Origin: Nitrospirota bacterium
GTDB taxonomy: Bacteria; Nitrospirota; Nitrospiria; JACQBZ01
Direction of reading: 5' to 3'
Assembly: GCA_016201865.1 (NCBI GenBank)
Contig: JACQCA010000025.1
Span: 3,551 to 67,550, forward strand
Length of the DNA: 64,000 nt
Below the pieces are notes generated by a model that was given only the letters and a program-made list of their open reading frames with translations, did not search any database and had not been told where the DNA came from. Every line of letters starts with the position of its first letter. Within the stretch, counting starts at the first letter, position 1. Made by a program: the position numbers and the translations under genes. Shown piece by piece: positions 9,858 through 58,205 of this stretch.

Positions 9858-9858
9858 G

Positions 9859-35170: not shown

Positions 35171-36094
35171 TCAGCGTTTCCTGGGTTTGCGAATCTTCTC
35201 TTTTTTCAGTACGCTCTTGACGGCTTCGCCGATCACGGCCGGGTTTCGGACGACTTTCACACCGGCCTCTTCAAGCGTTGCGATTTTCTGTGCCGCCGTT
35301 CCCTTGCCGCCCGAGATGATCGCGCCGGCATGGCCCATCCGCCGGCCGGGCGGAGCCGTTACCCCGGCGATGAAACCGACGACCGGTTTCGTGACATGGG
35401 ACTTGATATAATCGGCTGCGCGTTCCTCGGCATCCCCCCCGATCTCGCCGATCATCACGATCGCCTCGGTGTTCCTGTCTTTCTGAAACAGTTCAAGAAC
35501 GTCCGTGAAATTCGTCCCGTTTACCGGGTCGCCGCCGATCCCGATGCAGGTGGACTGCCCAAGACTGAGCTCGGTCAACTGCCAGACCGCTTCATAGGTC
35601 AGCGTGCCGCTGCGGGAGACGACCCCCACCGAACCTTTTTTATGGATGAAGCCCGGCATGATCCCGATCTTGCATTCCTCCGGGGTAATGATCCCGGGAC
35701 AGTTGGGACCGATCAGACGGATCGTGCGTTTCCCGTTGTCTGAGGCCGTTTTTCCGGCGATGAACCGTTTTGCGCGGATCATATCGGCCAACGGGATTCC
35801 CTCGGTGATGCAGACGATCAGGCCGATTCCGGCATCGGCCGCCTCCATGATCGCGTCGGCTGCAAACGCCGGCGGCACAAAGATCATCGAGACATCGGGC
35901 TTCACGGCCTCCACGGCCTCCGATACCGTGTTGAAGACCGGAACCCCTTCAAACGCGGTTCCCCCTTTTCCGGGAGTCACACCGCCGACGATCTTCGTCC
36001 CGTACTCGCGGCAGGCCGCGGCATGGAACGATCCTTCCTTGCCCGTGATTCCCTGGACGACGACTTTGGTATTTTTGTTGACGAGGATGCTCAT
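35171..36094 (-). CDS. sucD: Succinyl-CoA synthetase alpha subunit with an unusual Lys-rich C-terminal tail ([11 protein letters not shown])
   Basis: [24 protein letters not shown]..., CoA-binding and phosphohistidine loop (SGTLTYE). Confidence 0.95.
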
Positions 36095-36096
36095 GC

Positions 36097-37281
36097 CTAT
36101 CCCTTTTTCGTTTTCTCTGCCTGCTTAATCCCCATCTGAACGACGCCGCCCCGCTGTCCGACCCAGACATTCCGTTCGGAATCGACCGTGACGGCATAAA
36201 CATCGTCGCCGATCAGACCGTCCGCCTTTGTATAGCTCTTCCAGGCCGTTCCATTAAAGCTCGACACGCCGTGATTGGTTCCGACCCAGATCAGCCCTGA
36301 CGGATCGCGTTCCAAGGCATAGACGACATTCCCGGATAATCCCTGTTGGGTGGTGTAGTTCGTCCAGCGCTTCCCGTCGAAGCGGCTGACGCCGCCGCCC
36401 CAGGTGCCGAACCATTTATCGCCGCGGGCATCGATCATGATCGTGAAAATATAATTTTCGTTGTAGGTCTCTTTTCCTTTATCATCCAAAACACTCAGGT
36501 CATGGAAGTGGCCGGCGTAACTCCGCCCCGGCGCTAATTCTACACCGGGATTCTCCTGCAGGGCCTCATACGCTTCTCCCGACGTCTTTTTTCGGGCGAG
36601 GGCCAATTCGTTGGGAGCCCCCAGACCGTCCTTATGGGTATAGGCGGCCCACTGTTTTCCGGCCGGAGCCGCAGGATCAAACCGATTCACGCCCTCCTCG
36701 GTGCCGAACCAAAGCGACCGGTCGCGATCCACCGCCAGACCGTAGACCCATTTATTCACGAGTCCGTCTTTGGTGTTGTACGTCGCGAATCGGGATCCTT
36801 CGGGAGCGGACGGATCGTATCGGGTCACGCCGTCCCACGTCGCGATCCACATGCCGCCGTCGGGATGAAAATCAATGTCGTACACCCATAAATCGGACAG
36901 CCCGTCCTGTTTGCCGAAAGCCGTCCAGGCGGCTCCGTCAAAACGGAGCAGACCGCCGGCATCCGTTCCAAACCACAATCCTCCTTTTGCATCCTTATTA
37001 ATCGTGAAGACGTAGTTGCTCGTCAAACCGTCGTTTTTGGTATAGGTCCGGACGAGCCCGCCGTTGACGCGATTGACCTTGATGATTCCGGTAGACGTTC
37101 CGACCCATAAAAAAGCGCCGTCCGACTTCAGCGCGCGAACCACATTGCCCGGACCCGTGTTGAAACTCGCCATGACCTTGTAGTCCGGCATGGGCGGACT
37201 TTTTTGGGCGCAGCCCCAGAAAAGTAAAAGGCTGCTCAGGATAACGACGATCGGTCGGCGCGGTTGTCGGCGGGTTGACAT
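36097..37281 (-). CDS. Lipoprotein built of two-component-regulator-propeller (Reg_prop) repeats, inserted between sucC and sucD
   Basis: Lipobox LLLFWGC. At least 6 repeats of the type [15 protein letters not shown] / [18 protein letters not shown] overlaps the sucC TGA (TGATG). Stop is 2 nt before the sucD ATG. Confidence 0.8.
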
Positions 37282-38444
37282 CAGGATTGAATGAGGCTGA
37301 CGATCTTCTGGGCCCCCTCCCACATCGTCCGCGCCACGATAAGGTTCAGTCCGGATTCGGCGAGCATCTGCCGCGCCTCCTCGGCGTTCGTCCCTTCCAG
37401 CCGCACAACCAGCGGAACCTTGATGGCGACCTCTTTTGCGGCATCCATTACGCCGCCAGCGATCCGCTCGCATCGGACGATCCCGCCGAAGATATTGATG
37501 AAGACTCCCTTGACATTCCGGTCCGACATCAGAATCGTGAAGGCCTGCTTCACGGTTTCCTTCGAGGCGCCGCCCCCCACATCGAGGAAGTTGGCCGGGA
37601 AGGAACCGGCGAGCTTGATCGTGTCCATGGTGGCCATCGCCAGGCCGGCCCCGTTCACCATGCAGCCGATGGCCCCATCGAGTTTGACGTAGTTCAGACC
37701 GTATTGCGAAGCCTGAATCTCGAGAGGGTCTTCCTCGTCAAGATCGCGGAGCGCCTTGATGTCGTCATTCCGGTAAAGCGAATTATCGTCAAAGGTCACC
37801 TTGGCGTCCAATGCGATCAACTTTTGATCTCGGGTGACAACGAGCGGATTGATTTCGACCACGGAAGCGCCCTTTTCCATGAAGAGACGATAGAGGTTTC
37901 CCAACATAAGGACGAAGAGGCCGATGATCTCTTTTGCGAGCCCCAGGCGATAGGCCAGCATCCGTCCGTGAAAGGCCTGATAGCCGGCGGACGGATCGAT
38001 CAGGGCTTTGAGAATTTTCTCGGGCGAATGGGCCGCGACTTCTTCAATCTCCATGCCGCCCGCACGGCTCGCGATGAAGACGGGCCAGCCCGAAAACCGG
38101 TCTACGAGGAGGCTCACGTACAGTTCGCTCGCGATATCCGCGCCCTCTTCAATCAAAAGACGCTTCAACTTGCGTCCTTCCGGGCCGGTCTGATGGGTAA
38201 CGAGGACCTTTCCCAGAAGCTCCTTCGCCAGCGTTTCGACCTGCGCGCGCTCCTTGGTCAGCTTGACGCCGCCGGCCTTCCCCCGTCCGCCGGCATGAAT
38301 CTGGGCCTTTACCACATAGACGGAGGATTGAAGCTGGTCGGCCCAAGCTTTCGTCTCCTCGACTGTGGCGACGGCCTTCCCGCGTGGCACGGGGATATTA
38401 AACTGAGTAAAGAGCTGCTTGGCCTGGAATTCGTGGATGTTCAT
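37281..38444 (-). CDS. sucC: Succinyl-CoA synthetase beta subunit (ATP-grasp)
   Basis: MNIHEFQAKQLFTQFNIPVPRG... 387 aa. Confidence 0.95.
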   Translation of the reverse strand: MNIHEFQAKQLFTQFNIPVPRGKAVATVEETKAWADQLQSSVYVVKAQIHAGGRGKAGGVKLTKERAQVETLAKELLGKVLVTHQTGPEGRKLKRLLIEEGADIASELYVSLLVDRFSGWPVFIASRAGGMEIEEVAAHSPEKILKALIDPSAGYQAFHGRMLAYRLGLAKEIIGLFVLMLGNLYRLFMEKGASVVEINPLVVTRDQKLIALDAKVTFDDNSLYRNDDIKALRDLDEEDPLEIQASQYGLNYVKLDGAIGCMVNGAGLAMATMDTIKLAGSFPANFLDVGGGASKETVKQAFTILMSDRNVKGVFINIFGGIVRCERIAGGVMDAAKEVAIKVPLVVRLEGTNAEEARQMLAESGLNLIVARTMWEGAQKIVSLIQS

Positions 38445-38615
38445 TGGATGATATCCTGATTGATTGAGCTAACGGAGAGGCATTTTATCAGAGGATAAGG
38501 CGTGAAAGCAACTGGGATTTATGGACGGATTTTGCACGATCCATTCCATCCTTGCTTAAGCCCACGGCGCGGTTCATAATAGGTTCATCCACAAAATAAG
38601 CAGGAGGAACCCGTT

Positions 38616-38777
38616 ATGATGCTTTATATCCACAAGGACTGCGGTGAGCCCGCGGTAGAGCGGCCGGACGCCATCATGCCGGAACTTCCCGCCGAATTCC
38701 CCTTCACCTGCTTAAGCTGCCTCGGGGAAATCGAGGATGAATCGGATCTCACTGCGGTCGAGCTGATGAGCCAGTAG
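38616..38777 (+). CDS. Candidate small Cys-containing protein (53 aa)
   Basis: CAGGAGGAAC 8 nt upstream of ATGATG. MMLYIHKDCGEPAVERPDAIMPELPAEFPFTCLSCLGEIEDESDLTAVELMSQ. GC-rich codon third positions. Confidence 0.35.
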   Translation: MMLYIHKDCGEPAVERPDAIMPELPAEFPFTCLSCLGEIEDESDLTAVELMSQ

Positions 38778-38884
38778 ATGATCCCCGCGCGCAGTGTTTG
38801 ACGGCTCTGCTGTTCCACTTTTCCATTGTCCATCCTTTCACCCGAGTGTTTCAACAAACAACAAAAGATTTGACCCTTCACTTA

Positions 38885-39688
38885 TTAGTCAATAACGATA
38901 TCAACATTACTTCTGGAGCACCCTATGATGAATGAATTAGTGCCGATCATCACTTTATCCTCCCCGATAATTATGGGTTCGTAATTAGGGAAATGGAAAG
39001 TTCCTATGAGTTTAATTGAAGAAGAATTGAGATAACGGACGTTTAGAACTTGTCTCGCTTGTTGATCATATACAATCAGGGTATGGCTGTCTGGTCGTTC
39101 TATCCGAAAGTAATTATTTGGGTTTATATCAAATTTGTTCTTGTCGATTGTTGCCACTATTCTGTGGTCTGCGCTAAAGATTTTTGCGGTTAAGTAGATC
39201 GCATCTGCCTCCTTACCGAATGAGATCAGGTCCTCGCTGGCGACTCTTAAAACTGTATGAGGGAATTGGTCTGAAAAAAACGCTGATTTACCAATGTAGA
39301 CTGTAAAAAAATTAGATGGAATGTTGCATCGGGTTATAGGTGTGGGATCGTTTGCGGGCTGAAGGACTCCAGACATTTTGTTTTCATTCGCTTGTGAGGA
39401 TTGCTCGGATTTTCTCTGTGTAAGGACTTTAAGAAAAGCCTCATAGGAATCTTTATCGAGCGCATCATTTCCGTAATCTGTGCAAAGACGGAAGTGTAGC
39501 ACCTCAAACTCTTGCAGACCTGGTACCTCAGCCCGGATTCTCTGGTAAGTCTGTTGAATTTCTCCACCTGCTTTTAACGCTTCCTTAATCTTTGGAATAG
39601 ATGCTTCTACTTTTTCCTGGACCGAGGCAGTAAGAACGTCGGGTGGTGGTTCGTAACAATATACTACTTGACCGTCTTTCCGAATCAA
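38885..39688 (-). CDS. Hypothetical protein in a low-GC island. Annotated frame starts with TTG. A signal-peptide sORF (39685-39771, ATG with RBS) lies in the -1 frame, suggesting a frameshifted exported protein
   Basis: 267-aa ORF, AT-rich relative to flanks. Upstream MLRKYFVLLTIFFSSLVRVCHPQGTNIN* in another frame. Confidence 0.5.
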   Translation of the reverse strand: MIRKDGQVVYCYEPPPDVLTASVQEKVEASIPKIKEALKAGGEIQQTYQRIRAEVPGLQEFEVLHFRLCTDYGNDALDKDSYEAFLKVLTQRKSEQSSQANENKMSGVLQPANDPTPITRCNIPSNFFTVYIGKSAFFSDQFPHTVLRVASEDLISFGKEADAIYLTAKIFSADHRIVATIDKNKFDINPNNYFRIERPDSHTLIVYDQQARQVLNVRYLNSSSIKLIGTFHFPNYEPIIIGEDKVMIGTNSFIIGCSRSNVDIVID

Positions 39689-39883
39689 TTTATGTTCGTT
39701 CCTTGAGGATGGCAGACTCGCACAAGAGATGAGAAAAATATGGTAAGTAAAACAAAGTATTTGCGCAACATATAATTCTCCCTATCTTTTGTTATTTGTC
39801 TTCCTCGTGTCTTTCTTGTCGATGAATCCATTCATCTGAAGACATGGGTAATGGGACGGGTTTAGGGTAACAACTTTGTGAGA

Positions 39884-40054
39884 GATGTAAGAACCAGGGC
39901 GGATCACGGGTTTCCTTTTCTCCATCCGGCGGATGTGACCGTCTGAAAAAATCAAAAACGGCAGGAATGGCTCGACTGAGCGACTCGACCGAGTTCGTCG
40001 AGGGCTCGCCGAAGTCGGCCCGCGCCGGAAGAATAATGGATGGGATTATACCGG
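39884..40054 (-). repeat. Copy A of a ~125-nt conserved element (plus a 46-bp palindromic insertion), between the DUF2283 gene and low-GC cargo. Contains a TATAAT box, the palindrome CATCCG-C-CGGATG and a sORF start MEKRKPVI
   Basis: ~85% identical to 45632-45750 over ~125 nt when read on the minus strand. Identity stops exactly at the low-GC boundary. Confidence 0.5.
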
Positions 40055-40107
40055 TTTAAGCGGGAGAGGTCAATGTTCTCGTAGAGGGAGTTCGAAGGGC
40101 GGAGCGG

Positions 40108-40350
40108 CTATTTCTTCATCAAGTCAACTTCCGCGCTCGTACCGGTCGCAACATTCTCCACAATCAATTTGCCGGCTTCCCGACCGCGCAATTGTTCGTT
40201 GGCGTCCAGCAGCTCGATGCCGTACACCGTCCCATCCGGAGCCAGGTCGACATTCAGTGATTCACTTACATGGACCGTCTCCACCTGGGCCGTTTTCTCT
40301 TGCAGGCGAAGATAAGCAATGTTGTGTTTTGGATCATAGGTCAACTTCAT
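40108..40350 (-). CDS. DUF2283-family protein (putative antitoxin-like partner of DUF4258)
   Basis: MKLTYDPKHNIAYLRL... 80 aa. Confidence 0.7.
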   Translation of the reverse strand: MKLTYDPKHNIAYLRLQEKTAQVETVHVSESLNVDLAPDGTVYGIELLDANEQLRGREAGKLIVENVATGTSAEVDLMKK

Positions 40351-40360
40351 GATGGCCCTC

Positions 40361-40612
40361 CTAAAAGAATCGGGCGATAAATGTAATCGCCAGCCAGTCT
40401 TTTCCTTCTCTTACCGCGTATACTTCCACCTGCTTGGTTGCATAAACCTTTCCCCTCCAGATTTTGCCGAAAGGGAAATTTCTTCTGAAACCCGTTCTCC
40501 CATACTTGGCCGGGAAGGTTTCGCCCGTTTCTACGGCAGTAATGACTTCCGCTTCGGTCGCCCCTCTTTCATTCAGCCGTTCGACCGCGTGCGGATGCAG
40601 CCTGACACTCAT
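40361..40612 (-). CDS. DUF4258-family protein (putative toxin-like)
   Basis: HPHAVERLNERGATEAEV... 83 aa. Immediately upstream of the DUF2283 gene. Confidence 0.7.
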   Translation of the reverse strand: MSVRLHPHAVERLNERGATEAEVITAVETGETFPAKYGRTGFRRNFPFGKIWRGKVYATKQVEVYAVREGKDWLAITFIARFF

Positions 40613-40756
40613 CCACGTTCACCACGACGTTATCATAGAAGGAGTGTTGTTTAAAGAAACCCCTTAAATCGGGATTCATTATCCGAACGGATCTTACGAT
40701 ACCGGAATTTTACCGAGAAGGCAAGCGAACAAAGGAAGCGGATGGAGCCGGCAGTT

Positions 40757-40785
40757 TTGACTCCGGAAGCATCCGATGGTATGAT
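40757..40785 (+). promoter_or_regulatory. Sigma70-type promoter TTGACT-17nt-TATGAT upstream of the dus gene
   Basis: TTGACT 40757-40762, TATGAT 40780-40785. dus ATG at 40828 with GAGGAA. Confidence 0.5.
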
Positions 40786-40827
40786 GATCCGCTCAAACAC
40801 AACCTGTCACGAGGAAACGGACGTTTC

Positions 40828-41985
40828 ATGGACGAAAACTCCTTTTGGAATAATCTCTCCCGGCCGATCGTCGGCCTCGCCCCGATGGACGGCGTGACAG
40901 ATGCCGCGTTTCGCGCCATCACGGCCCGGCATGGAGGCCCCGATCTCAGTTTCACGGAATTTGTATCGATCGACCGGATCGTATCGGGCTATGATCCGGA
41001 TCTGGCCGAGCTCCGTTACAGCGAAATCGAGCGGCCGGTGATCGCGCAGGTTTTCGGGACGGACCCCGAGGCCTTTTATCGCACCGCGCATCTCATCTGC
41101 GAGTTGGGCTTTGACGGGATCGACATCAACATGGGCTGCCCGTCAAAAACCATCGCACGCGCCGGGGCCGGAGCCGGATTGATACGCACGCCCGAGCGCG
41201 CGAGAGAGATTCTCCGGCGGGCACAGCAGGGAATACGGGACTGGGCCGCCGGTCAGGCGATCGACCGGATCGGCCTTCCGGCCACCGTTCCGGAGGACGT
41301 CCGGCGCGCGAAAGCCCTCTGGTTCGGAAGCGCCGTTGATCCGGTCGTGAACGCCCCACGACAAACGATCCCCGTCTCGGTCAAGACGCGCCTGGGATAT
41401 GGCCGGATCGTCATTGACGACTGGATTCCCTCCCTTCTTTCAGAATCTCCGGCCGCGATTACGCTCCACGGTCGAACGCTGACCCAGAATTATGCCGTCG
41501 AGGCCGACTGGGAGGCGATCGCGCGCGCGGCCGAGATCGTTCGGGGTTCCCGCACGCTGATCCTGGGCAACGGCGATATACGATCCACCGCGACGGCCGT
41601 CCGCCGGATTCGCGAGACCGGCGTCCACGGTGTTTTGGTCGGCCGTGCCGCGATGGGAAATCCCTGGATCTTTACCGCCTGTGATTCGATACGAACCGCC
41701 GTTCAGACCGGAGAGGCCCCGATGACTCCATCGGTTTCGCACAGCGAGAAATTGGCCGTGGCATTGGAGCATGCCGGGCTGTTCGACCGAATTCGCGGAG
41801 AAGTTTCGTTTCGAGTCGCACGTAAATTCCTTTCCGCTTACTGCCGCGGTTTTGAAAACGCGTCCGAGCTGCGTCAACGCCTCGTCCGGGTCGATACGCT
41901 CCGGGAATTGGAGGCGATCCTCCAACCCGCGGCCACCTTCGTGGCCATCCCTGCACCCACGACTGTGGGTGTCGTATGCGCCTGA
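40828..41985 (+). CDS. tRNA-dihydrouridine synthase (Dus family)
   Basis: VGLAPMDGVTDAAFR...GIDINMGCP... TIM-barrel Dus motifs. 385 aa. Confidence 0.9.
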   Translation: MDENSFWNNLSRPIVGLAPMDGVTDAAFRAITARHGGPDLSFTEFVSIDRIVSGYDPDLAELRYSEIERPVIAQVFGTDPEAFYRTAHLICELGFDGIDINMGCPSKTIARAGAGAGLIRTPERAREILRRAQQGIRDWAAGQAIDRIGLPATVPEDVRRAKALWFGSAVDPVVNAPRQTIPVSVKTRLGYGRIVIDDWIPSLLSESPAAITLHGRTLTQNYAVEADWEAIARAAEIVRGSRTLILGNGDIRSTATAVRRIRETGVHGVLVGRAAMGNPWIFTACDSIRTAVQTGEAPMTPSVSHSEKLAVALEHAGLFDRIRGEVSFRVARKFLSAYCRGFENASELRQRLVRVDTLRELEAILQPAATFVAIPAPTTVGVVCA

Positions 41986-42599
41986 TCCTCGCATCAACCT
42001 CCCCGCGCCGGAAAGAAATCTTGTCGCTGCTCGGCCTCCCCTTCGAGCTTGTATCGCCCGGCCTGGAGGAAATATTCCGGCCCGGCCGGTTCCCCGCGGA
42101 TGAAGCGGTTTACTGGGCGATTGAAAAAACCCGCGCGGTGAATCGCCTCTATTTGGACGCGATCGTGATCGGGTCCGATACGGTGATTGACCTGGATGGC
42201 AAATCGATCGGTAAACCGGTTGATCAGGACGACGCCGTACGGATTTTATCCCTTCTGGTCGGCCGGACTCATACGGTCGTTACGGCCGTCGCGGCGGTCG
42301 TCAGAGGTGGAAAGGAATCTATTGCAGTCGAAAAGACGAAAGTGCGGATGCTTCCGGCTTCCAGGGAGATTCTCGTACAATATGCCGCGACCGGCGAGCC
42401 ACTGGACAAAGCCGGCGCCTACTTGCTTCAAGGAGAAGGACGGAAGCTGATCGAATCGCTCAAAGGCGACTATCTTTCCGCAGTCGGTCTTCCCCTGCGC
42501 GCCCTGGCCGGGTTATTGCGAGAGGCCGGAATACGGACCAAGGTGGATGTCGAATTGATCTATCGCCAACGCAACATTATGAACTGGCGGAGTTATTAG
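41976..42599 (+). CDS. maf: Maf-like nucleoside triphosphate pyrophosphatase / septum formation protein
   Basis: MRLILASTSPRRKEILSLLGLPFE... 207 aa. Confidence 0.9.
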   Translation: MRLILASTSPRRKEILSLLGLPFELVSPGLEEIFRPGRFPADEAVYWAIEKTRAVNRLYLDAIVIGSDTVIDLDGKSIGKPVDQDDAVRILSLLVGRTHTVVTAVAAVVRGGKESIAVEKTKVRMLPASREILVQYAATGEPLDKAGAYLLQGEGRKLIESLKGDYLSAVGLPLRALAGLLREAGIRTKVDVELIYRQRNIMNWRSY

Positions 42600-42618
42600 G
42601 ATTATGCCGATCCATGAT

Positions 42619-42810
42619 TCAGAGACCGCCCCGACGAAAAGCATCCCGAACCTGTCGGGCATCCGCAGACAACGCAGCAAAAAGAAATCGGTTTGCCTCT
42701 TCCAACCACGTCAGGCGGGTCGCAATGGACCACTGCATATATTTTAAGATGGCCTCATCGGTAAGATGATAATGGTAGCCGTTTGAAGGCGGCCGTGTTT
42801 CATCTGTCAT
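42619..42810 (-). CDS. Small hypothetical protein, downstream partner of the nucleotidyltransferase-like gene
   Basis: Start set at MTDETRPPSNGYHYHL... Confidence 0.35.
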   Translation of the reverse strand: MTDETRPPSNGYHYHLTDEAILKYMQWSIATRLTWLEEANRFLFAALSADARQVRDAFRRGGL

Positions 42811-43312
42811 CTTCCTGGCCTCTCTTTCGAAACTGCTTGATGCGCTCCAGAGTTTCGATATCATCCAAGTCCTGCTGCCGTCCGGCCGCGCGCTTCATGG
42901 CGATCAGGTGATCGATCGAGATGACAGGAACCCTCACAGACTCAACAGTCAATACCGTTTTATTCCGATCAGCCTCCTCGAATGGAATCGGGCTTTCCAA
43001 AAGAAGATCGACTTCCTGATATTGGATCTTAGGATGAATAAAGGTGAAGGCCACCAAGCCCTTCGTCTTTTTCCAGTCTTCCCTCACCTCGGGCGAGAGC
43101 AGATTCTTGGCATCCACCGGAAGTCGCGGTCGATAACCCAATTCCGCAAGGGTTTCCAACAAACGGGAAAGATTGCCCCGGTTCAGATCGGCCACGATGT
43201 CGAGATCGGCCGTCATACGCGGCGCGCCGTGCAGATTTATCGCAAGCGCGCCGACAACCGCATATCGAATTTTCCGTTGATCAAACGCGCGGAAGACATC
43301 AAGATAAAACAT
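42800..43312 (-). CDS. Putative minimal nucleotidyltransferase-fold protein (toxin-antitoxin-associated)
   Basis: MFYLDVFRAFDQRKIRYAVVGALAINLHGAPRMTADLDIV... (GA/GS...DxD-like NTase core). Confidence 0.5.
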   Translation of the reverse strand: MFYLDVFRAFDQRKIRYAVVGALAINLHGAPRMTADLDIVADLNRGNLSRLLETLAELGYRPRLPVDAKNLLSPEVREDWKKTKGLVAFTFIHPKIQYQEVDLLLESPIPFEEADRNKTVLTVESVRVPVISIDHLIAMKRAAGRQQDLDDIETLERIKQFRKRGQEDDR

Positions 43313-43548
43313 GCCCTTACGTTACCAAGTCCAAGTCGTTCTGTCAAATCGACACCTTGGGTCAAGCAGGCTGGCTGGTTGGGTCTGAATGATTTAGGAT
43401 TTAACTACGGCCGAGGCGATCTCTTCGTGGGCCAATGTGTCCGCTGTATACCCGATCGCGGCCTGAACATCTTCATGCGTGAGCTTTTGATTCGATCAGT
43501 AATCGTCGGCGGCTTTATTGCTCCGTTGTTCTATCCCCCGCGGCCTAC

Positions 43549-43995
43549 TCACGATAACACCAGCACCTCCAGCTCTTTGACCCGTTTCAATTTCGAGTCA
43601 TTCCCGATAAATCCCGTCGCGCGGGAATGAAGCGCGGTAGCCAGCAAAACCGCATCGGGCGTTTTCAACTCGTACTCCGCCCGCAATCGGGCCCCTAAAT
43701 CGGCCACCTCGATCGAAACGTCGACCCAATGGATATGAGGATACGTAGTCAAAAGACCGTAGAACCGATTGACGATTGGATCGTTTTGGGTTCGATAAGG
43801 CTGGACGAGAACCTCCAGAAGCGAGAGCGTGGAACAAACCGCGGCGTTTCGCCCCGCTTCAATCGATTCAAATACTCTTTGGGCGAGGGCTCCGTAGGAA
43901 ACGTGCGCTTCAATGAAATAGATCAGGAGGTTTGAATCCAGTCCGATGCGCCGATGCCGGCCCAAAAATTTCTCCAGGACTGGAACGCTCACCAC
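43549..43995 (-). CDS. vapC: PIN-domain ribonuclease (VapC toxin)
   Basis: IGLDSNLLIY...PIN acidic residues. 148 aa. Overlaps the upstream antitoxin. Confidence 0.8.
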   Translation of the reverse strand: MVSVPVLEKFLGRHRRIGLDSNLLIYFIEAHVSYGALAQRVFESIEAGRNAAVCSTLSLLEVLVQPYRTQNDPIVNRFYGLLTTYPHIHWVDVSIEVADLGARLRAEYELKTPDAVLLATALHSRATGFIGNDSKLKRVKELEVLVLS

Positions 43996-44207
43996 GACCG
44001 GCGTTCCCGTTTCAAATAATTTTTTGGATAGAGGCCCTTCCCCGAGCCCGCAAGCGTGTCGGCATACTTCCTGGGTTTCGGCATCAAGATCGTGATGTCG
44101 CCTTTGACGACCACCAGGAGCGAATCGCCTCCCCGGACCTTCATCGCCGCCCGCGCCTCCTTCGGAAGAACGATCTGATTTTTCGAAGACAGCTTCAAAT
44201 AAGCCAT
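43989..44207 (-). CDS. vapB: AbrB/MazE/SpoVT-type antitoxin (VapB)
   Basis: MAYLKLSSKNQIVLPKEARAAMKV... swapped-hairpin DNA-binding motif. Confidence 0.7.
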   Translation of the reverse strand: MAYLKLSSKNQIVLPKEARAAMKVRGGDSLLVVVKGDITILMPKPRKYADTLAGSGKGLYPKNYLKRERRSW

Positions 44208-44369
44208 GGCTCCCTCCCGTTGCACCCCATAGAATGATGCTTTACTTTACCATAAATTGTAAAGCGGCGCAAGCCGTTCAATATCACCCACCCGGCTTCC
44301 CCTTCCTTTACTGTTCTACTGATCCAATATTCCATTCTCCAGCCCCTCCCCCTCCCCGCGCGCAGGCTT

Positions 44370-44750
44370 TCACTTACCAGTGATGATTATTTTCATCGCG
44401 GCAACAAATTCTTTTCCGTCTTCCAACTTTAAAGTCTGCACCGGTTCAACGACTTCATCCTGAATGTCGTAGTCCACGATCTCCCGGATCTTCCGTGCAT
44501 TGATCAGCATCCGATGGTATTTTGGATCCATCTTTCCGGTTTTTGCAAAATGAAACCCCAAGGACGCTTCAACAGCCGAGTGTTTTCCGACCTCGATGTC
44601 CTCGGATCTCAGAAGGGCCTGAGCCGCGTAGAACATGGCGTAATAGATCTTGCTGGAGGCGTCCGAAGCAAAACCCTGCTTGATGAGTGATTCCGCGACT
44701 TCCAGTGCATGATCCGCTTTTTCAAGAAGTCGCTGAACTTCTTTGCTCAC
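44370..44750 (-). CDS. HEPN-domain protein
   Basis: 126 aa, helical HEPN fold with IREIVDYD. 4-nt overlap with the upstream MNT gene. Confidence 0.75.
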   Translation of the reverse strand: MSKEVQRLLEKADHALEVAESLIKQGFASDASSKIYYAMFYAAQALLRSEDIEVGKHSAVEASLGFHFAKTGKMDPKYHRMLINARKIREIVDYDIQDEVVEPVQTLKLEDGKEFVAAMKIIITGK

Positions 44751-45094
44751 AGGGCGACTCCCTCACGTTCTACGCTCCGATAGAATGAAAAGCCTTCCGC
44801 CAGGGCTTTGCGATACGCGTCTTCCGTAAAGACCTTGACCGAAAGAATCGGCCTGAAATCGTGGTCCCACATCACCCGGTACGCGACATCCTCAATCCGG
44901 CCCTCCAGCTCGGGCGTCTTCCGATCCACCAGGATCACAAGGTCCAGATCGGAATCCTCTCGCCCCTGCCCTCGCGCGCGGGAGCCGAAAGCAATCACCT
45001 TTCGGACATGGGCCGTCGCATCGGCCGGCAGACGCTGCTTCAATTCCAAAATCAAATCCCGATCCTGCTTGTCCATCCGAAACCTCCCGGACAT
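44747..45094 (-). CDS. Minimal nucleotidyltransferase (MNT) partner of HEPN
   Basis: VIAFGSRARGQGREDSDLDLVILVD. Confidence 0.8.
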   Translation of the reverse strand: MSGRFRMDKQDRDLILELKQRLPADATAHVRKVIAFGSRARGQGREDSDLDLVILVDRKTPELEGRIEDVAYRVMWDHDFRPILSVKVFTEDAYRKALAEGFSFYRSVEREGVAL

Positions 45095-45222
45095 CCTTCA
45101 TAGCTGCTCTTAGGATACAGCGTCGAAAGAGCGTTTGCAAGCCGTATCGGCTTCCATCCCCCATATCCGCGCGCATTCTTTACCAACTCGAAGGCCCTAT
45201 TGTTTATCTTGAAGTTCCAATC

Positions 45223-45573
45223 TTAGAAATCTGATGCAGTCATAGCTAAATACAACGCCCAAGAGATTATAATTCCCAAAATTTGCCAAGGTATCACGGT
45301 ATATTCCCTTCTTACACCAAGCCATATAGCACATACTAATGCCAAGATAACAGGAACAGCAAAAGATAGATTTACACTGAAAACCTTAAACATTATGACG
45401 GCCATCGCCGCATAAAATATTCCGTCAATAATCTCCATCATTGATTGTGGTAATTTCTTCCACGATTCGCCAACGATAAGCTCCAGAACAAAATAAAACA
45501 GTAGACTTATTAAACCGCCTACCGCTATAGGCGCACCAAAAATCAACAAGGTATAAACTATAACTTCTTTCAA
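45223..45573 (-). CDS. Low-GC 4-TM membrane protein (hypothetical), TTG start
   Basis: Four hydrophobic helices. GGTGGA RBS. Directly preceded by repeat copy B. Confidence 0.5.
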   Translation of the reverse strand: MKEVIVYTLLIFGAPIAVGGLISLLFYFVLELIVGESWKKLPQSMMEIIDGIFYAAMAVIMFKVFSVNLSFAVPVILALVCAIWLGVRREYTVIPWQILGIIISWALYLAMTASDF

Positions 45574-45631
45574 TCGTCCACCATTATCTCAAAAAATGGG
45601 ACTGCTTTATTTCTTGGCATGCGTTATAAGA

Positions 45632-45750
45632 GATGTACGAACCAGCGCAGATCACGGGGTTCCTTTTCTCCATCCGGCGGATGTGACCGCGTGAAAAAAT
45701 TAAAGACGGCAGGAACGGCCCGCGCCGGAGGAATGATGGGAGGATGATAC
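45632..45750 (-). repeat. Copy B of the ~125-nt conserved element. Abuts the stop codon of a DUF2283 gene and the 5' side of low-GC cargo
   Basis: Aligns with 39884-40054 (minus the 46-bp palindromic insert). TATCAT box, CATCCG-C-CGGATG, sORF start MEKRNPVI. Confidence 0.5.
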
Positions 45751-45752
45751 CC

Positions 45753-45956
45753 TTATGTCAGCGCGACTTCAAGAGGCTTCTTGCTCAACTTGCTGACCCT
45801 GAGCACGGAAAAACCCAGAACGTTCCCGGCCTGATCTACTTTTTCCATCACCTGATCATTCTCCGTCTCACGAAAATACCCTTCTTTCTGATCAAAAATC
45901 ACCTCGAGGTAATCGTCTTCCGGGTCATACCAGAGTTTTACGATTTTCTTGGCCAA
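45753..45956 (-). CDS. DUF2283-family protein (orphan, no DUF4258 partner)
   Basis: KLWYDPEDDYLEVIF... 67 aa. Confidence 0.65.
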   Translation of the reverse strand: MAKKIVKLWYDPEDDYLEVIFDQKEGYFRETENDQVMEKVDQAGNVLGFSVLRVSKLSKKPLEVALT

Positions 45957-45978
45957 ATCAGATCTCCCTCTGGGAGGG

Positions 45979-47592
45979 TTATTGTTTCGCCGCCGCGGCG
46001 GGCATGATTTCGGCGCGGCGGACGTAATCGGGAAGGATGATCGGTGCGATCCGTTTCGGCTTGATTCCGTTCTTCTCCAGTTCCTTCTGGAACCGGGTCA
46101 CATGGGACAGCGTCAGCTTTCCGGCTGGAACCGATTTCGCACGCTGGGCGGCCGCGGCGCCCGCCCGCTTTCCGAAAACGATTAAATCCAGAAGCGAATT
46201 TCCCATCAAGCGGTTCCGGCCGTGCAGCCCGCCGGATGCTTCTCCGGCGACGAACAGCCCCTGGGTCTGGGACTGCCCGTCCGTATCAATCGCCACGCCG
46301 CCGTTCTGGTAATGAAGCGTAGGATAGATCAGCACCGGCTCTTTTCGAATATCAATCCCGTACCGCTCAAACTGCCGGACCATCGCCGGGAAGCGCTTTG
46401 TGATGTTTCCCTCGCCCAATAGTAGATCGATCATCGGAATGTCGAGCCAGACCCCGACCCGTCCGGCCGGCGTCTTCACACCCCGGCCCTCGGCGCATTC
46501 ACGTATGATCGACGCGGCCACGACGTCGCGTGTATCGAGTTCGTTAACGAACCGCTTGCCGTTCCGGTTGACGAGATGTCCGCCGTCGGAGCGGATGCCT
46601 TCGGTCACGAGCGCGCCGGCCAGCTGTTCCGGAAAAACGGCCCCGGTGGGATGGTACTGAAAGGTGTCGGCATGGGCCAGCTTCGCGCCGGTGCGATAGG
46701 CCAGAACCAGCGCGTCGCCGGTCGCGCCATAGTGATTGCTCGTGGGAAAACCCTCGATATGAAGCCGTCCGGAGCCGCCCGTCGCCAGGATGACCGACTT
46801 GGCTTCGACCACGATGAACTGGTCGTTGTCCATATTTTTGAGCACCGCGCCGGAGCATCGCCCGTCCGGATCGGTCAGCAGCTCCACCACGGGTGAGAAC
46901 TCCAGGATCGGGATCCGTTGGTTTAAGACCTCGTCCTTAAGCACACGCATGATCTCAAGGCCGGTATAATCGCTGCAGGTGAGAAGCCGCGGCTTTGTGC
47001 TACCGCCGCCTTTCTTCGTCTTGAGGTTTCCGCTCTCGTCCCGGTCGAACAGAACCCCGAGCCCGATCAGCCACTGCGCGGCCTTCGGGCCCTCTTCCAC
47101 CAGGACCTTGAGAAGCTTTGGATCGTTCTTGAGATGTCCGCCTCGAAGCGTGTCGAAGAAATGGGTCACGGGCGAATCATCCTCGGTGATCGCGACCTGC
47201 ATCCCGCCCTGGGCCATGACCGTATTGGAATCGCCCATTCGCAGCTTGGTCACGAGCAGAACGTCCGCTCCAAGCGCCTTGGCCGTCAGCGCGGCCGTCG
47301 CCCCCGCCCCGCCCCCGCCGACCACCAGCACATCCACACGGTACTGCGGCGTAAGATCGAGATCTGCCGGAACGGGACTGTCCGATTCCAGAAGCTCGGC
47401 CACCTCCCGCACGGTTCGTTCGCCCGCGTTGGGACCGGTCTGGATTTTGTGATACTCTTCTTTTTTATAATCGGGATGGAATGCGCGGACCAGCCGGTCC
47501 CGTTCCTCCGGCGACTGGATCGGAACGGTCTGCTTGCGACGTTCGTCGCGTTCGTGGATGACCTTGCTTTTTGATTCGGCGATGACGTCCAT
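45979..47592 (-). CDS. FAD-dependent fumarate reductase/succinate dehydrogenase flavoprotein-like protein with a ~95-aa N-terminal extension
   Basis: VDVLVVGGGGAGATAAL (Rossmann). His/Arg capping-domain motifs (HYQNGG..., FVAGEASGGLHGRNRLMGNSLLD). Confidence 0.8.
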   Translation of the reverse strand: MDVIAESKSKVIHERDERRKQTVPIQSPEERDRLVRAFHPDYKKEEYHKIQTGPNAGERTVREVAELLESDSPVPADLDLTPQYRVDVLVVGGGGAGATAALTAKALGADVLLVTKLRMGDSNTVMAQGGMQVAITEDDSPVTHFFDTLRGGHLKNDPKLLKVLVEEGPKAAQWLIGLGVLFDRDESGNLKTKKGGGSTKPRLLTCSDYTGLEIMRVLKDEVLNQRIPILEFSPVVELLTDPDGRCSGAVLKNMDNDQFIVVEAKSVILATGGSGRLHIEGFPTSNHYGATGDALVLAYRTGAKLAHADTFQYHPTGAVFPEQLAGALVTEGIRSDGGHLVNRNGKRFVNELDTRDVVAASIIRECAEGRGVKTPAGRVGVWLDIPMIDLLLGEGNITKRFPAMVRQFERYGIDIRKEPVLIYPTLHYQNGGVAIDTDGQSQTQGLFVAGEASGGLHGRNRLMGNSLLDLIVFGKRAGAAAAQRAKSVPAGKLTLSHVTRFQKELEKNGIKPKRIAPIILPDYVRRAEIMPAAAAKQ

Positions 47593-47604
47593 AGGCGAGC
47601 TTTC

Positions 47605-48312
47605 CTATTTAGACGGTTGCCCGGCGGCTTTTAATTCCTCTTCGCTCATAGAGAGGATCTTTTTCCATTCATCCGTGTATTTGCCGGACCGGATCTCGTC
47701 AACCCGGCGGGTGAGATTCTGCGGCGGCGCCGTCAGACGGGCCCCGTGCGCGCGGCTGGCGTAAAGCGCGACATGGTTCGGGGCGATGTCGGCGATGCAG
47801 ACCGGAATGCACTGGCCGCACATCACGCAGTCCATGAACATCTCCGAGACCTTCTGAAAATCGCCGAAGACCGCCTTCCAGACGCCGTCCCGCACGTCGA
47901 TCCCCTGCGGACAGGCCTCGGTGCAGGCGTTGCAGTTCCGGCAGAGCGAGGCTTCGGGATAGATCTTGAACAGCTCCTGTTTCGGATCGGAAATCTGATC
48001 CAGATCGTAGATCGACTTGCGGTTCGGGTAATAGGAGAAATTCAGAAAGAAGGACATCCCGTCCTCGACCAGCATCTGGCAGGCCAGCGTGTTTCGAAGA
48101 CGGACGTCGTCCTTCGTCCGGTACGTGGCGGCGCAGGCCCCGCAGAAGCCGCCGAGACATCCCGCGCCGCGAACAACCTCATGCCCGGTATACCACATCG
48201 CCCGCAGCATTGTAAGCCCGTCGGGCACGGAATACGGCCGGCCCATGATCTCGACCGTGATCATCCGGCTCTGTGCGCCGATCGTACTCTCGTGAACGCG
48301 TTCAGTCATCAT
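47605..48312 (-). CDS. SdhB/FrdB-like iron-sulfur subunit (2Fe-2S plus two Cx2Cx2Cx3C clusters)
   Basis: CLGGFCGAC; CRNCNACTEACP; CVMCGQCIPVC. Confidence 0.8.
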   Translation of the reverse strand: MMTERVHESTIGAQSRMITVEIMGRPYSVPDGLTMLRAMWYTGHEVVRGAGCLGGFCGACAATYRTKDDVRLRNTLACQMLVEDGMSFFLNFSYYPNRKSIYDLDQISDPKQELFKIYPEASLCRNCNACTEACPQGIDVRDGVWKAVFGDFQKVSEMFMDCVMCGQCIPVCIADIAPNHVALYASRAHGARLTAPPQNLTRRVDEIRSGKYTDEWKKILSMSEEELKAAGQPSK

Positions 48313-48321
48313 TCCTTCCGA

Positions 48322-50568
48322 TTAACTTAAGGCATTTAATGCCGAACCGGCCTTAAACCATCCGATCTGCTGTTCCGTCATGCTGTGGTTGGCCTGTATC
48401 TTGATCTCTTTTCCATCGGCCTTCTGAACCACGACCTCGACCGGCTTTTCCGGCGCAAGCTGAGCCAAGCCTCGAACGTTGACCCGATCACTCTGCTCGA
48501 ATTTTTCGTAATCCTTCGGATCGGCAAACGTCAACGGAAGGATGCCCTGTTTTTTCAAGTTGGTCTCATGAATACGTGCGAAGCTTTTCACGAGAACGGC
48601 CAGTACGCCCAGGAAGCGCGGCGACATCGCGGCATGCTCGCGGCTGGAACCCTCGCCGTAATTCTCATCGCCGATCACGACCGAGCCTATGCCTTTGGCC
48701 TTGTACCGGCGTGCAATCGCGGCGATCGTCAGGTTGGATTCGCCGGACAACACATCCGTCCCCTTGCCAGGCTCGGCGCTGAAGACGTTGTTCGCACCCA
48801 GAAACATGTTGTCGCTGATCTTGTCCAGATGGCCGCGATATTTGAGCCACTGCCCGGCGGGCGAGATATGATCGGTGGTGCATTTTCCCTTGGCCTTGAT
48901 CAGGATCGGCAGTTTTTCGAAATCCTTCCCGTCCCATCGTGGAAAAGGTTTTAAAAGCTGGAGCCGCTCACTCGTGGGCGGAATATCGATCTCGATCTTG
49001 TCGCCGTCCTTCGCGGGTGGTTCGAATCCTTCCTCGCCTTTTGCAAACCCTTTGGTCGGAAGTTCTTCCCCACGCGGCGGCTCGAACTTGATCTTCGTTC
49101 CGTCCGCGGCCGTCAGACTGCCCGTGATAGGATTGAAGTCCAAGGTTCCGGCAAAAGCCATGGCCGTAACGATTTCGGGACTCGAAAGGAAGGAAAGCGT
49201 CTCGGCATTCCCGTCGTTTCGGCCGGGGAAGTTTCGGTTGTACGAGCTGATGATCGAGTTGGACTCCTTCGGCTTCAGGTCGGATCGTTTCCATTGCCCG
49301 ATACAGGGTCCGCAGGCGTTGGCCAGCACCGTCCCGCCCATCGCTTCGAATGTTTTCATGAAGCCGTCACGGATCATCGTGTGATAGATCCGTTCGGACC
49401 CGGGCGTCACCAAAAAACCGGCCTTGGCCTTCAGGCCGGCTTTCAGCCCCTGAAGCGCGATATGGGCCGAGCGGCTGATGTCTTCATACGAGGAATTGGT
49501 GCAGGATCCGATGAGGGCGGCCTTTAATTCAACCGGGTATCCTTTTTCCTTCGCCTCGGCCGCGAGTTTCGAGATCGGCCGCGCCAGGTCCGGGGTATGC
49601 GGCCCGACGACGTGAGGTTCCAGCTCGGACAGGTTGATCTCGACGATCTGGTCGTAGTACTTTTCGGGTTTGACCATCACCTCCGGATCGGACATGAGGT
49701 TCTCCCGATTGGTCTGCGCCAGCTTGGCCCATTCGGCCCGGTCAGTTGCATTCAAATAGGCTGCCATCTTGTCGTCGAACTGGAAAATCGATGTGGTCGC
49801 CCCGAGCTCGGCGCCCATATTCGTGATCGTTCCCTTGCCGGTGCAGGAGATCGTCCCGGCGCCGGGCCCGAAATATTCGATGATCTTGTTCGTCCCGCCC
49901 TTCACCGTCAGTAGGCCGCAGAGATATAAAATCACGTCCTTCGGAGAGCTCCAGCCCTTCAACTGTCCCGTCAATCGAACGCCGATCAATTTGGGATGCA
50001 ACACCTCCCACGGCAGCCCGGCCATCACCTCGCCGGCATCCGCGCCGCCTACCCCGATCGCAAGCATGCCGAGCCCCCCGCCGTTCGGTGTGTGAGAATC
50101 GGTTCCGATCAGAAGCGCACCCGGAAAGGCGGAGTTCTCCAGAACGACCTGATGGATGATCCCCGCGCCCGGTTTCCAGAAACCGATCCCGAATTTCCGT
50201 GCGGCCGAACTTAGAAAATTGTAAACCTCCTTGTTCTCTTCGATCGCACGCCGAACGTCATCCTTCGCGCCGCTCTGCGCACGGATCAGATGATCGCAAT
50301 GGACCGTACTCGGGATGGCCACTTTTTTCTTTCCGGCCTGAATGAACTGGAGCAGCGCCATCTGGGCCGTCGCGTCCTGCATTGCGACCCGGTCCGGTCG
50401 CAGAAGAAGCTGGGCCTTGCCACGTTCCCAGACCTGGGCATTAAAATCATCGGCATGCGTCACCAGGATTTTTTCGGTCAATGTCAACGGACGGCCGAAT
50501 TTTTTCCGGGCCTTCGCCAGCTTTTCCGGCATGGAGGCATAAAGTTTTTTGATGGCTTCAACCGACAT
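48322..50568 (-). CDS. acn: Aconitate hydratase (aconitase family, ~750-aa type)
   Basis: GTDSHTPNGGGLG and other aconitase cluster-ligand motifs. 748 aa. Confidence 0.92.
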   Translation of the reverse strand: MSVEAIKKLYASMPEKLAKARKKFGRPLTLTEKILVTHADDFNAQVWERGKAQLLLRPDRVAMQDATAQMALLQFIQAGKKKVAIPSTVHCDHLIRAQSGAKDDVRRAIEENKEVYNFLSSAARKFGIGFWKPGAGIIHQVVLENSAFPGALLIGTDSHTPNGGGLGMLAIGVGGADAGEVMAGLPWEVLHPKLIGVRLTGQLKGWSSPKDVILYLCGLLTVKGGTNKIIEYFGPGAGTISCTGKGTITNMGAELGATTSIFQFDDKMAAYLNATDRAEWAKLAQTNRENLMSDPEVMVKPEKYYDQIVEINLSELEPHVVGPHTPDLARPISKLAAEAKEKGYPVELKAALIGSCTNSSYEDISRSAHIALQGLKAGLKAKAGFLVTPGSERIYHTMIRDGFMKTFEAMGGTVLANACGPCIGQWKRSDLKPKESNSIISSYNRNFPGRNDGNAETLSFLSSPEIVTAMAFAGTLDFNPITGSLTAADGTKIKFEPPRGEELPTKGFAKGEEGFEPPAKDGDKIEIDIPPTSERLQLLKPFPRWDGKDFEKLPILIKAKGKCTTDHISPAGQWLKYRGHLDKISDNMFLGANNVFSAEPGKGTDVLSGESNLTIAAIARRYKAKGIGSVVIGDENYGEGSSREHAAMSPRFLGVLAVLVKSFARIHETNLKKQGILPLTFADPKDYEKFEQSDRVNVRGLAQLAPEKPVEVVVQKADGKEIKIQANHSMTEQQIGWFKAGSALNALS

Positions 50569-50641
50569 GGAAGGCTCCCTTCCTCATTATCGTCTGGAAA
50601 TTTCATTCTAACGGGCCGCCGCAGCGATAGTCAACGGATAT

Positions 50642-53748: not shown

Positions 53749-53817
53749 TTAATGCCTCCTGTCCCTTCAAATTCTCATGGTTTCGGCATTGATGAACGTC
53801 TCAGAAAAGGAAGGGAT

Positions 53818-53846
53818 ATTGTAGCCAGTTTTATCGTTATTCTCAA
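53818..53846 (-). promoter_or_regulatory. Sigma70-type promoter TTGAGA-17nt-TACAAT on the minus strand driving aclBA
   Basis: Minus strand TTGAGA (plus 53841-53846) and TACAAT (plus 53818-53823), 17-nt spacer. Confidence 0.5.
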
Positions 53847-53848
53847 CA

Positions 53849-53886
53849 GAAAAAAAGACCTATCGGCTAAGACCCGAATAGGTCTT
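53849..53886 (-). terminator. Rho-independent terminator (minus strand) after the lipoprotein gene
   Basis: AGACCTAT-loop-ATAGGTCT followed by TTTTTTT on the minus strand. Confidence 0.55.
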
Positions 53887-53895
53887 TAGACCCAT

Positions 53896-55498: not shown

Positions 55499-58205
<2,707 letters not shown>

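Follow-up and report, generated by a model that had tools for sequence, protein, structure and literature searches.

A conserved promoter/leader-like element behind DUF2283 toxin-antitoxin genes and its variable gene cassettes in a Nitrospirae lineage

Introduction

Small genes of foreign composition that stand in one orientation behind a shared noncoding sequence raise the question of what places them there and what expresses them. We examined this question in a 64,000-nt stretch (64 kb; hereafter, the window) of contig JACQCA010000025.1 from a Nitrospirota bacterium. An original prediction, made from the sequence alone, had pointed out two copies (A and B) of a conserved element of about 125 nt, each lying behind a gene of the DUF2283 family and ahead of an unrelated gene of low G+C content (GC), here called its cargo. 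It took the element for a reusable promoter/leader or recombination junction that recruits foreign DNA beside toxin-antitoxin (TA) loci. To our knowledge, integrons are the only well-understood platform that aligns promoterless cassettes behind one promoter, and the origin of the recombination sites of their cassettes is an open question in integron biology. Our best reading is that the element is a conserved promoter/leader linker on a DUF2283 TA module, heading a lineage-specific cassette array that is integron-like in outline but is not an integron.

Results

Two copies of one element

Both copies lie on the minus strand (A, 40073-39850; B, 45772-45595) and align at ~89% identity across ~124 nt, and a 29-nt core occurs exactly twice in the window, where none is expected from shuffled sequences. 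The predicted pair is thus real, and no further copies exist within the 64 kb. The left arms take the common form GGTAT(A/C)ATCC...TCCGGCGCGGGCCG (40052-40016 and 45751-45716), with ~92% identity within a 24-nt conserved part, while the middle and right blocks (39967-39881 and 45715-45629) match at 90.8% across 87 nt. Past the -10 box the order is a C-rich arm, a weak hairpin with a T-run, the palindrome CATCCGCCGGATG (39935-39923 in A, 45683-45671 in B), a purine tract GGAGAAAAGGA within the purine-rich stretch GGATGGAGAAAAGG (39927-39914 and 45675-45662), a GTG (39907 in A) and the motif CATCTCT.

The predicted setting, after a DUF2283 gene and before an unrelated low-GC gene, also holds: the upstream genes match Pfam DUF2283 (E = 1.5e-11 and 2e-7), and the two cargo genes are unrelated, with GC of 0.41 and 0.37 against 0.555 for the window. 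Several details of the original description required correction. The palindromic insert reported for copy A is present but measures 48 nt, not 46; it has a repeated CTCGAC...GTCGAG structure, sits in the loop of the copy's weak hairpin and has no second copy in the window. Identity had been said to stop exactly where AT-rich DNA begins, yet past CATCTCT a non-homologous spacer of 16-19 nt gives way to a shared patch, TAAANCNGTCCCATT (39864-39850 in A, 45609-45595 in B), so the homology does not end exactly at that boundary. The element, finally, begins 55 nt (A; 34 nt if measured to the -35 box) and 1 nt (B) after the DUF2283 stop codon, rather than 2-53 nt after it.

Related loci and the constant position of the element

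Orthologs of DUF2283-B (95-99% identity) were found by a protein search in which both DUF2283 genes of the window served as queries, and their contigs were scanned with a profile of the element. This yielded seven non-redundant instances, namely the two window copies and those of loci L024, L025, L028, L033 and L036, with full-length profile matches in both window copies, L024, L033 and L036 and partial matches in L025 and L028. The loci differ in source and in the gene context upstream: L024 (a metagenome-assembled genome from NCBI) lies by SMC, L025 (= L026, L027; JGI and NCBI), L033-L035 (groundwater) and L036 (JGI) by tfrA, L028 (with L029 and L030; ENA) by dapA, and a further locus, L031 (JGI), by a carbonic anhydrase gene.

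A DUF2283 gene directly precedes the element in all seven instances, and behind every B-type ortholog lies either the element or what remains of it; the element is primarily the invariant 3' flanking sequence of a single family of type II TA modules. The remnant in L031 is reduced (GCCGTTC...CCGGATGGGAAGAAG) and is followed by a terminator and a housekeeping ABC-F gene, with no cargo. A profile search of ten loci (P0040) carrying a DUF2283-A-like gene in another lineage detected no element. Searches farther afield returned only chance words, whether by BLAST of the element flanks, by exact 21- and 19-mer core words in GTDB genomes, JGI metagenomes and IMG/VR, or by the linker core in IMG/VR, and no plasmid or phage relatives emerged beyond such words.

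A promoter-like site, a leader and a short open reading frame

The element opens with a promoter-like site, and a -35-like hexamer is kept 17 nt from the -10 box in 7/7 instances, across three different upstream contexts. The sequence TTGACC is found in the two copies (A and L024) whose upstream DNA is unrelated to DUF2283-B, at equal spacing; in element B the -35 hexamer is supplied by the last codons of DUF2283-B. This retention of -35 box, 17-nt spacer and -10 box supports the earlier view of a reusable promoter/leader-like module beside TA genes. Between the element and the cargo start we found no further promoter-like site for either cargo. In L024, a second such site, TTGACT-16-TATACT, lies upstream of the element, behind a small basic Cys-containing open reading frame (ORF) of 48 aa (6205-6351; MRKQYRTKRRSCALCKPHKMGW...) that directly follows the DUF2283 stop and has no Pfam match.

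The leader extends for ~100 nt and is followed by a purine-rich ribosome-binding site (a consensus match) and the start of a short ORF, 41 codons long in A and 23 in B (45655-45584), which ends on the cargo ribosome-binding site or 12 nt before it. The middle segment exists in two alternative forms: M1, with the T-run, and M2 (CCGGCACCAAATCCTAACGGGCC), in L024 and L028. The U-run is kept in five M1 copies and absent from M2, and in copy B a 5-bp stem followed by CGTCTTTAATTTTTT was flagged as terminator-like. The start of the short ORF aligns across variants, being a GTG in M1 and an ATG after a canonical AAGGAG in L024. Coding-like conservation is limited to this start, MI(R/C/H)x(G/V), and, between copy A and L024, to a QM(N/S)GFI patch; the shared patch at 39864-39850 falls inside short ORF A. 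A coding role for the CATCTCT region was considered and rejected, since L024 is shifted by one base there and the DNA is conserved nonetheless. Promoter activity and translational coupling of the cargo are predictions from these sequence features.

Replacement of cargo between conserved flanks

The window (at its B locus), L025, L033 and L036 represent alternative alleles of a single locus, in the order tfrA-(TA promoter, toxin)-DUF2283-B-element-X-...-AbrB(-PIN)-maf-dus, where X is the cargo directly after the element. X differs in each of the four syntenic alleles and is co-oriented and low in GC: a 116-aa protein with four transmembrane (TM) segments followed by an MNT-HEPN pair in the window; a TIR_2-like 319-aa protein, a 136-aa TM protein and a duplicated maf fragment in L025; proteins of 197 and 180 aa in L033; and a Trypsin_2 protease followed by a 180-aa protein in L036. 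These wholly different contents bear out the notion of a cassette-like variable site. Cargo GC at all loci is 0.37-0.49, against 0.555 for the genome, and all cassettes point the same way as the promoter-like site. Some of the cargo looks defence-like (e.g. the TIR_2-like and protease genes), and PADLOC assigned none of ten cargo proteins to a defined defence system.

The modules of the islands are better conserved than the core genes that flank them. Between L033 and the window, identity is 83% for tfrA and 78% for maf, and it rises to 87.5% for DUF2283 plus element and 92% for AbrB-PIN; between L025 and the window, the corresponding values are 89.5% (tfrA), 79% (maf-dus), 92% (DUF2283 plus element) and 95% (AbrB). 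This inverted pattern of divergence indicates that the island modules were exchanged horizontally in recent times.

A sharp recombination junction, as had been envisaged, is not seen: breakpoints within the element vary by genome, falling at the centre of the palindrome CATCCGC|CGGATG in L025 and after CCGGCGCG in L028, with gradual divergence in L033 and L036. The sequence of L028 equals the left junction of L024 joined to its right junction, and L028 thus looks like an unoccupied site. In L024, imperfect direct copies of the word GGAGAAAA stand on either side of the cargo; L028 has this word once (CGGATGGAGAAAATAC). Immediately before each cassette stands GGATGGA or the word CTGGAGAATGGAA.

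Two rearrangements within these loci are, by their sequence, apparent footprints of unequal recombination. In L025 (4758-4954; = L026 2650-2846), the cassette array includes a 197-nt duplicate of the maf 3' end (86% identity to window 42599-42403), followed by a copy of the linker described below. In L028 (2923-3398), L029 and L030, the toxin 3' end and DUF2283-B are tandemly duplicated with a 377-nt period, and the second copy in L028 is truncated and joined directly to the linker.

A second conserved linker at cassette ends

Every cassette is followed by a second repeat, with the consensus AGAGCCGTCAAAGACT-GCGCGCGGGG-AGGGGGAAGGGCTGGAGAATGGAA and the ending CTGGAGAATGGAA. The original prediction had suspected a second junction motif at the far ends of the two cargo genes; BLAST of these ends against each other and against the window was negative, and the motif emerged on aligning the related loci, where it proved to be part of this larger linker. 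The linker profile finds three window copies (38822-38776, 45204-45155 and 44373-44348), all on the minus strand and all within the islands, and none elsewhere in the window. Counting a degenerate copy, the window thus holds 3 + 1, L025 three direct copies of 71-127 nt, L028 two, and L033 and L036 one each. Like repeats stand less than 4 kb apart, one per co-oriented cassette (window, 45204, 44373 and ~43545; L025, 4146, 4676 and 5030).

L024 carries a different repeat family in four copies spaced 615-711 nt (9298-11312; AGGTCGAAAAGAG...GCTCCCCTCCGGCCTCGCGCGGGGG), one after each small ORF (PrcB_C, PIN, YaeQ), with a C-rich/G-rich imperfect palindrome that is unlike the linker of the window. 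Upstream of AbrB, the sequence GCCGGGTGG(G/A)TGATATTG (window 44279-44296; L033 2501-2521) forms an imperfect inverted copy of the C-rich left arm of the element (21 nt, 81% in L033). An AAGCCG...CGGCTT hairpin overlapping the AbrB -35 box holds this copy in its loop, and the same hairpin, here with a loop of 3 nt, also precedes the MNT-HEPN promoter.

TA modules and cargo A

The two DUF2283 proteins of the window share only 29% identity. Upstream of the TA genes we identified an invariant operon promoter, GCTTGCCTT-N8-AAATTCCGGTAT(N)TT, in the window, in L024 (5640-5670) and L025 (2310-2340) and also in L031, L033 and L028, preceding two toxin types, DUF4258 and PBECR2-like, that have no detectable mutual similarity. 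The toxin gene of DUF2283-B is lost in the window, and in L033 the operon promoter survives although the toxin gene is gone. With such divergent antitoxins and dissimilar toxins, the shared flanks are not accounted for by the copying of an entire TA module; rather, since TA-A and TA-B share both the upstream promoter and the downstream element around dissimilar toxins, the TA genes themselves appear to have been swapped between conserved linkers.

Cargo A is probably frameshifted, as had been predicted. Its signal-like start lies in a different frame from the 267-aa ORF, its homologs have TM or signal N-termini, and the sequence recurs unchanged in an independent Logan contig. The protein has no match in Pfam, NCBIfam or PADLOC; its homologs in other phyla adjoin transposases or an integrase, and a supposed homology to the L024 cargo was rejected on comparison. 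The ORF is bracketed by a 16-nt inverted repeat (39784-39799 and 38854-38869; ACAAATAACAAAAGAT and ATCTTTTGTTGTTTGT; 94% complementary), the right arm of which belongs to a linker subtype also seen in L028 3406-3432; the repeat is of low complexity and could have arisen by chance. A convergent 53-aa ORF on the plus strand (38616-38777), with a C-x(22)-CxxC pattern and no family match, abuts the cargo A linker and is a candidate gene.

Integron, RNA and transposon signatures

That the element is not a classic attC, as the original prediction held, is supported by both a box scan and single-stranded DNA (ssDNA) folding. A script scan for R'' (RYYYAAC) and R' (GTTRRRY) boxes 50-160 nt apart found none in window 38400-46100, L024, L028, L033 or L036, and two weak candidates in L025 (folding energy, dG, of -7.6 and -5.7). 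Four linker copies, folded as ssDNA on both strands, gave no attC-type hairpins (dG -5.5 to -15.4 kcal/mol; z -1.5 to +1.2 relative to shuffles). No recombinase appears in the ORF map of the window, in Pfam matches of ten unassigned ORFs or in the gene tables of six related loci, and the cognate enzyme that the original prediction called for was thus found in none of these.

Rfam returned no matches over the whole window at the gathering threshold and chance matches only in lax searches, and ARAGORN found no tRNA or tmRNA that could serve as an integration site. RNAalifold, applied to five sequences that are few and similar, gave a covariation term of +1, with 2/26 pairs compensated. An inverted-repeat search of the element found no terminal pairs, only the weak left-arm partner 1.5 kb away.

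Features of the window and wider surroundings

Coordinates are collected in Table 1. Core carbon-fixation genes enclose both variable islands: the flanking stretches (35171-38444 and 45979-57742) hold genes of reductive tricarboxylic acid cycle type, including sucCD, a TfrA-like fumarate reductase with its Fe-S subunit, aconitase, ATP-citrate-lyase-like genes and a monomeric isocitrate dehydrogenase-like gene. Another accessory patch (57756-62294) holds further TA-like pairs, at 57756-58658 and 61419-62294, along with ORFs of low GC (59137-61051; GC 0.47, one with HEAT repeats), and neither element nor linker is present in it. A single ORF of 2678 aa with an FAD-binding-like N-terminus occupies 21991-30027 on the plus strand.

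Table 1. Positions of the element, its cargo, the linkers and the associated TA genes in the window
Feature	Position	Strand	Basis or remark
Element A, left arm (GGTATAATCC...TCCGGCGCGGGCCG)	40016..40052	-	-10 box is the first base block of homology
Palindromic insert, copy A only	39968..40015	-	alignment; splits the two blocks of copy A
Element A, middle and right parts	39881..39967	-	profile match, E = 1e-26
Element B	45595..45751	-	profile match, E = 7e-38
Promoter-like site of element A, TTGACC-17-TATAAT	40045..40073	-	11/12 consensus positions; best match in 38.5-46.2 kb
Promoter-like site of element B, TTGAAG-17-TATCAT	45744..45772	-	9/12 consensus positions; conserved in L025, L028, L033, L036
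Short ORF A (VIRPGSY..., 41 aa)	39782..39907	-	opened in element; stop overlaps cargo A ribosome-binding site
Cargo A, low-GC exported-protein gene	38885..39771	-	GC 0.41; signal-like start 39771-39685, 267-aa ORF 39688-38885
Cargo B, low-GC 4-TM protein gene, 116 aa	45223..45573	-	GC 0.37; weak DUF1097 match only
Second cassette, MNT-HEPN pair	44370..45094	-	Pfam NTP_transf_2 and HEPN
Third cassette, AbrB-type antitoxin and PIN toxin	43549..44225	-	family matches and locus comparison
Far-end linker after cargo A, ending AGAGCCGTCAAACACT-GCGCGCGGGGAT	38781..38878	-	profile E = 2e-10; left part common to L028 3406-3432
Far-end linker after cargo B (...GGTAAAGAAT-GCGCGCGGATATGGGGGATGGAAG)	45151..45204	-	profile E = 1e-8
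Linker after HEPN (GTGAAAGCCT-GCGCGCGGGGAGGGGGAGGGGCTGGAGAATGGAA)	44330..44373	-	right half recurs upstream of AbrB in L025, L033, L028
Degenerate linker after PIN gene	43501..43545	-	intact counterpart L028 4318-4367
TA module A: DUF4258-like toxin (40612-40361) and DUF2283-A antitoxin (40350-40108)	40108..40612	-	Pfam
DUF2283-B antitoxin gene	45753..45956	-	Pfam; orthologs 95-99% identical
TA operon promoter TTGCCT-17-TATCGT	40696..40724	-	common to unrelated B-type TA modules

Discussion

We hypothesize that, in one Nitrospirae lineage, a DUF2283-type TA module carries the element as its conserved 3' linker. The element would open with an outward-reading sigma-70-type promoter, followed by the leader of ~100 nt, the common variant of which has a weak hairpin and U-run, and would close with a purine-rich ribosome-binding site and the opening codons of a short ORF whose end falls at, or close to, the start of the next gene. 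In this way the element may supply transcription, and probably translational coupling, to whichever gene comes first. The array behind it would consist of co-oriented small accessory cassettes, both low-GC orphans and TA pairs, each closed by the second linker, and the conserved linkers could serve as portable homology for the replacement, duplication and deletion of cassettes. Such exchange would proceed by general or short-homology recombination among members of the population, with no part for an integron-type integrase; the route is suggested by the arrangement of the sequences. We lean, without strong conviction, towards the view that the first cassette is expressed from the element and that cassettes turn over by recombination within the linkers. 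Most of the original interpretation stands, save for the sharp junction and active recruitment: a DUF2283 ortholog in L031 is followed by a reduced remnant and no cargo, and no recombinase was found in the window or at six related loci, so that active recruitment of foreign DNA can at most be inferred.

Several observations weigh against this account. Both promoter and ribosome-binding site are known purely as matches to a consensus, the B-type -35 hexamer lies inside DUF2283 coding sequence and matches at 4/6 positions, and the T-run with its hairpin may be no more than a TA operon terminator. The analysis covered 64 kb from this genome and roughly twelve short contigs. Moreover, why genes of foreign composition should each end in a conserved linker is difficult to see unless the linker is attached by something, which points towards a dedicated mechanism; the GGATGGA/GGAGAA word, which recurs at junctions, may mark a specific site.

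The plainest alternative is an ordinary paralogous flank: the 3' untranslated region or terminator of a TA operon, together with an ancestral neighbour's promoter, carried along in a duplication of the TA module, with the cargo reflecting the usual insertion and deletion turnover of a TA-rich island and the conserved sequences playing no part in it. Such an origin would account for the element or remnant behind every DUF2283-B ortholog, including the cargo-less L031, for the common upstream promoter of TA-A and TA-B, for the ragged junctions and for the mere two copies in 64 kb. It is harder to square with the low identity of the two DUF2283 proteins and the lack of detectable similarity between their toxins, with wholly different cargo between conserved flanks in four alleles, with a second linker repeated behind each cassette, and with island modules better conserved than core genes, and we regard it as unlikely. 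In about the same measure unlikely is site-specific, integron-like capture, in which the element would be attI-like with a Pc-like promoter, the linkers attC-like, and a recombinase encoded elsewhere would act at GGATGGA/GGAGAA or GCGCGCGG. A promoter-like site at the head of a co-oriented array, small cassettes (often TA pairs or orphans of foreign GC) each closed by the same 50-125-nt repeat, a GGATGGA or CTGGAGAATGGAA word directly before every one of them, the L024 cargo between direct repeats of a word that is single in L028, and the L025 break exactly at the palindrome centre are all features that capture would produce. Against it, neither recombinase nor transposase genes occur in the window or within ~5 kb at six related loci, the linkers are not palindromic and fold as ssDNA with the z values given above, the 7.7-kb island contains no RYYYAAC...GTTRRRY pairs, the breakpoints vary by genome both within the element and in the linker's left part, and the DNA right of the L025 breakpoint is unlike a linker half-site. 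We would also entertain, as quite an unlikely possibility, a capture system distinct from integrons, in which a promoter-bearing entry site is welded to a stabilising TA module and non-palindromic linkers of ~50 nt are recognised at GGATGGA/GCGCGCGG by a putative recombinase encoded elsewhere; if so, a Nitrospirae population could assemble and shuffle foreign genes, and even swap TA genes between promoter and element.

The conserved leader itself invites a reading as a structured cis-regulatory RNA or small RNA, either a C/U-rich RNA of 50-55 nt whose 3' end would lie at the hairpin with its U-run, or a leader of attenuator/riboswitch type gating expression of the downstream gene. The five M1-type copies do conserve a weak hairpin and U-run ~45 nt past the promoter-like site, and pairing is possible between the C-rich 5' arm and the CGCCGGAUGGAG region, in which the first ATG and some of the purine tract lie. 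Rfam gives no match even at E <= 1-10, however, single-sequence folds are no better than shuffles (z -1.4 and -0.4), covariation is as slight as reported above, and M2 in L024 and L028 replaces the U-run and breaks the long-range pairing, all of which makes an RNA function improbable. Least credible of all is a miniature inverted-repeat transposable element (MITE or Correia-like) or a transposon end with an outward promoter. The size of ~125-175 nt, an internal length variant of ~50 nt, a -10 box at the very edge and the weak inverted partner of the left arm upstream of AbrB (L033; window 44296-44279) would suit such an element, but it has no terminal inverted repeats and no target-site duplication, always sits behind a DUF2283 gene instead of being dispersed, is accompanied by no transposase, and found no match beyond chance words in plasmids, phages, IMG/VR, GTDB genomes or JGI metagenomes.

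Returning to a promoter/leader linker with homology-driven exchange, uncultured autotrophic Nitrospirae would here show the outward architecture of an integron, anchored on a TA module, with no attC hairpins or integrase in view. Should linker homology be all that exchange requires, integron-like arrays can form with no dedicated enzymes; should a recombinase take part, the arrays would represent a new capture system. Either way, the element is a marker for variable accessory genes in these genomes.

Relation to known systems

The likeness to integrons and to clusters of attC sites lacking integron integrases (CALIN) is broad: a promoter-like site heads a co-oriented array, cassettes are replaced from strain to strain, and the cassettes are short, include many TA pairs and orphans, are of atypical GC and carry a homogeneous 50-125-nt repeat at each 3' end. 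In attI1, a short ORF, ORF-11, couples translation, and the short ORF at the present entry site may do the same. Unlike in integrons, however, no IntI gene is nearby, the repeats lack attC hairpins and R''/R' boxes, junctions do not fall at one fixed position, and it is a TA module, not an integrase gene, to which the entry site is tied. Correia- and ERIC-type MITEs are promoter-bearing intergenic repeats that resemble the element in size (~125-175 nt), in having a ~50-nt length variant and in placing promoter boxes at the edge, but the element lacks terminal inverted repeats and target duplications, is not dispersed and is strictly tied to one TA family.

The minimal mobile elements (MMEs) of Neisseria exchange cassettes through flank homology at recombination hot spots. 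As in MMEs, alternative gene contents lie here between conserved flanks, no recombinase of their own is encoded, and exchange is presumably by homologous recombination after DNA uptake; in contrast to MMEs, the homology resides in short noncoding linkers repeated within the array rather than in flanking housekeeping genes, and the first linker has a putative promoter/leader. The pdif modules of Acinetobacter plasmids depend on XerC/D and are bounded by 28-bp XerC/XerD sites in alternating orientation. They share with the present arrays small modules, often TA pairs, short conserved bounding sites and the lack of a recombinase of their own, whereas the linkers described here are direct, ~50 nt long and chromosomal, with no dif-like architecture seen (no formal dif test was made). 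MMEs and pdif modules would thus be the nearest functional analogues of these arrays, both differing from them in the nature of the sites and in their arrangement.

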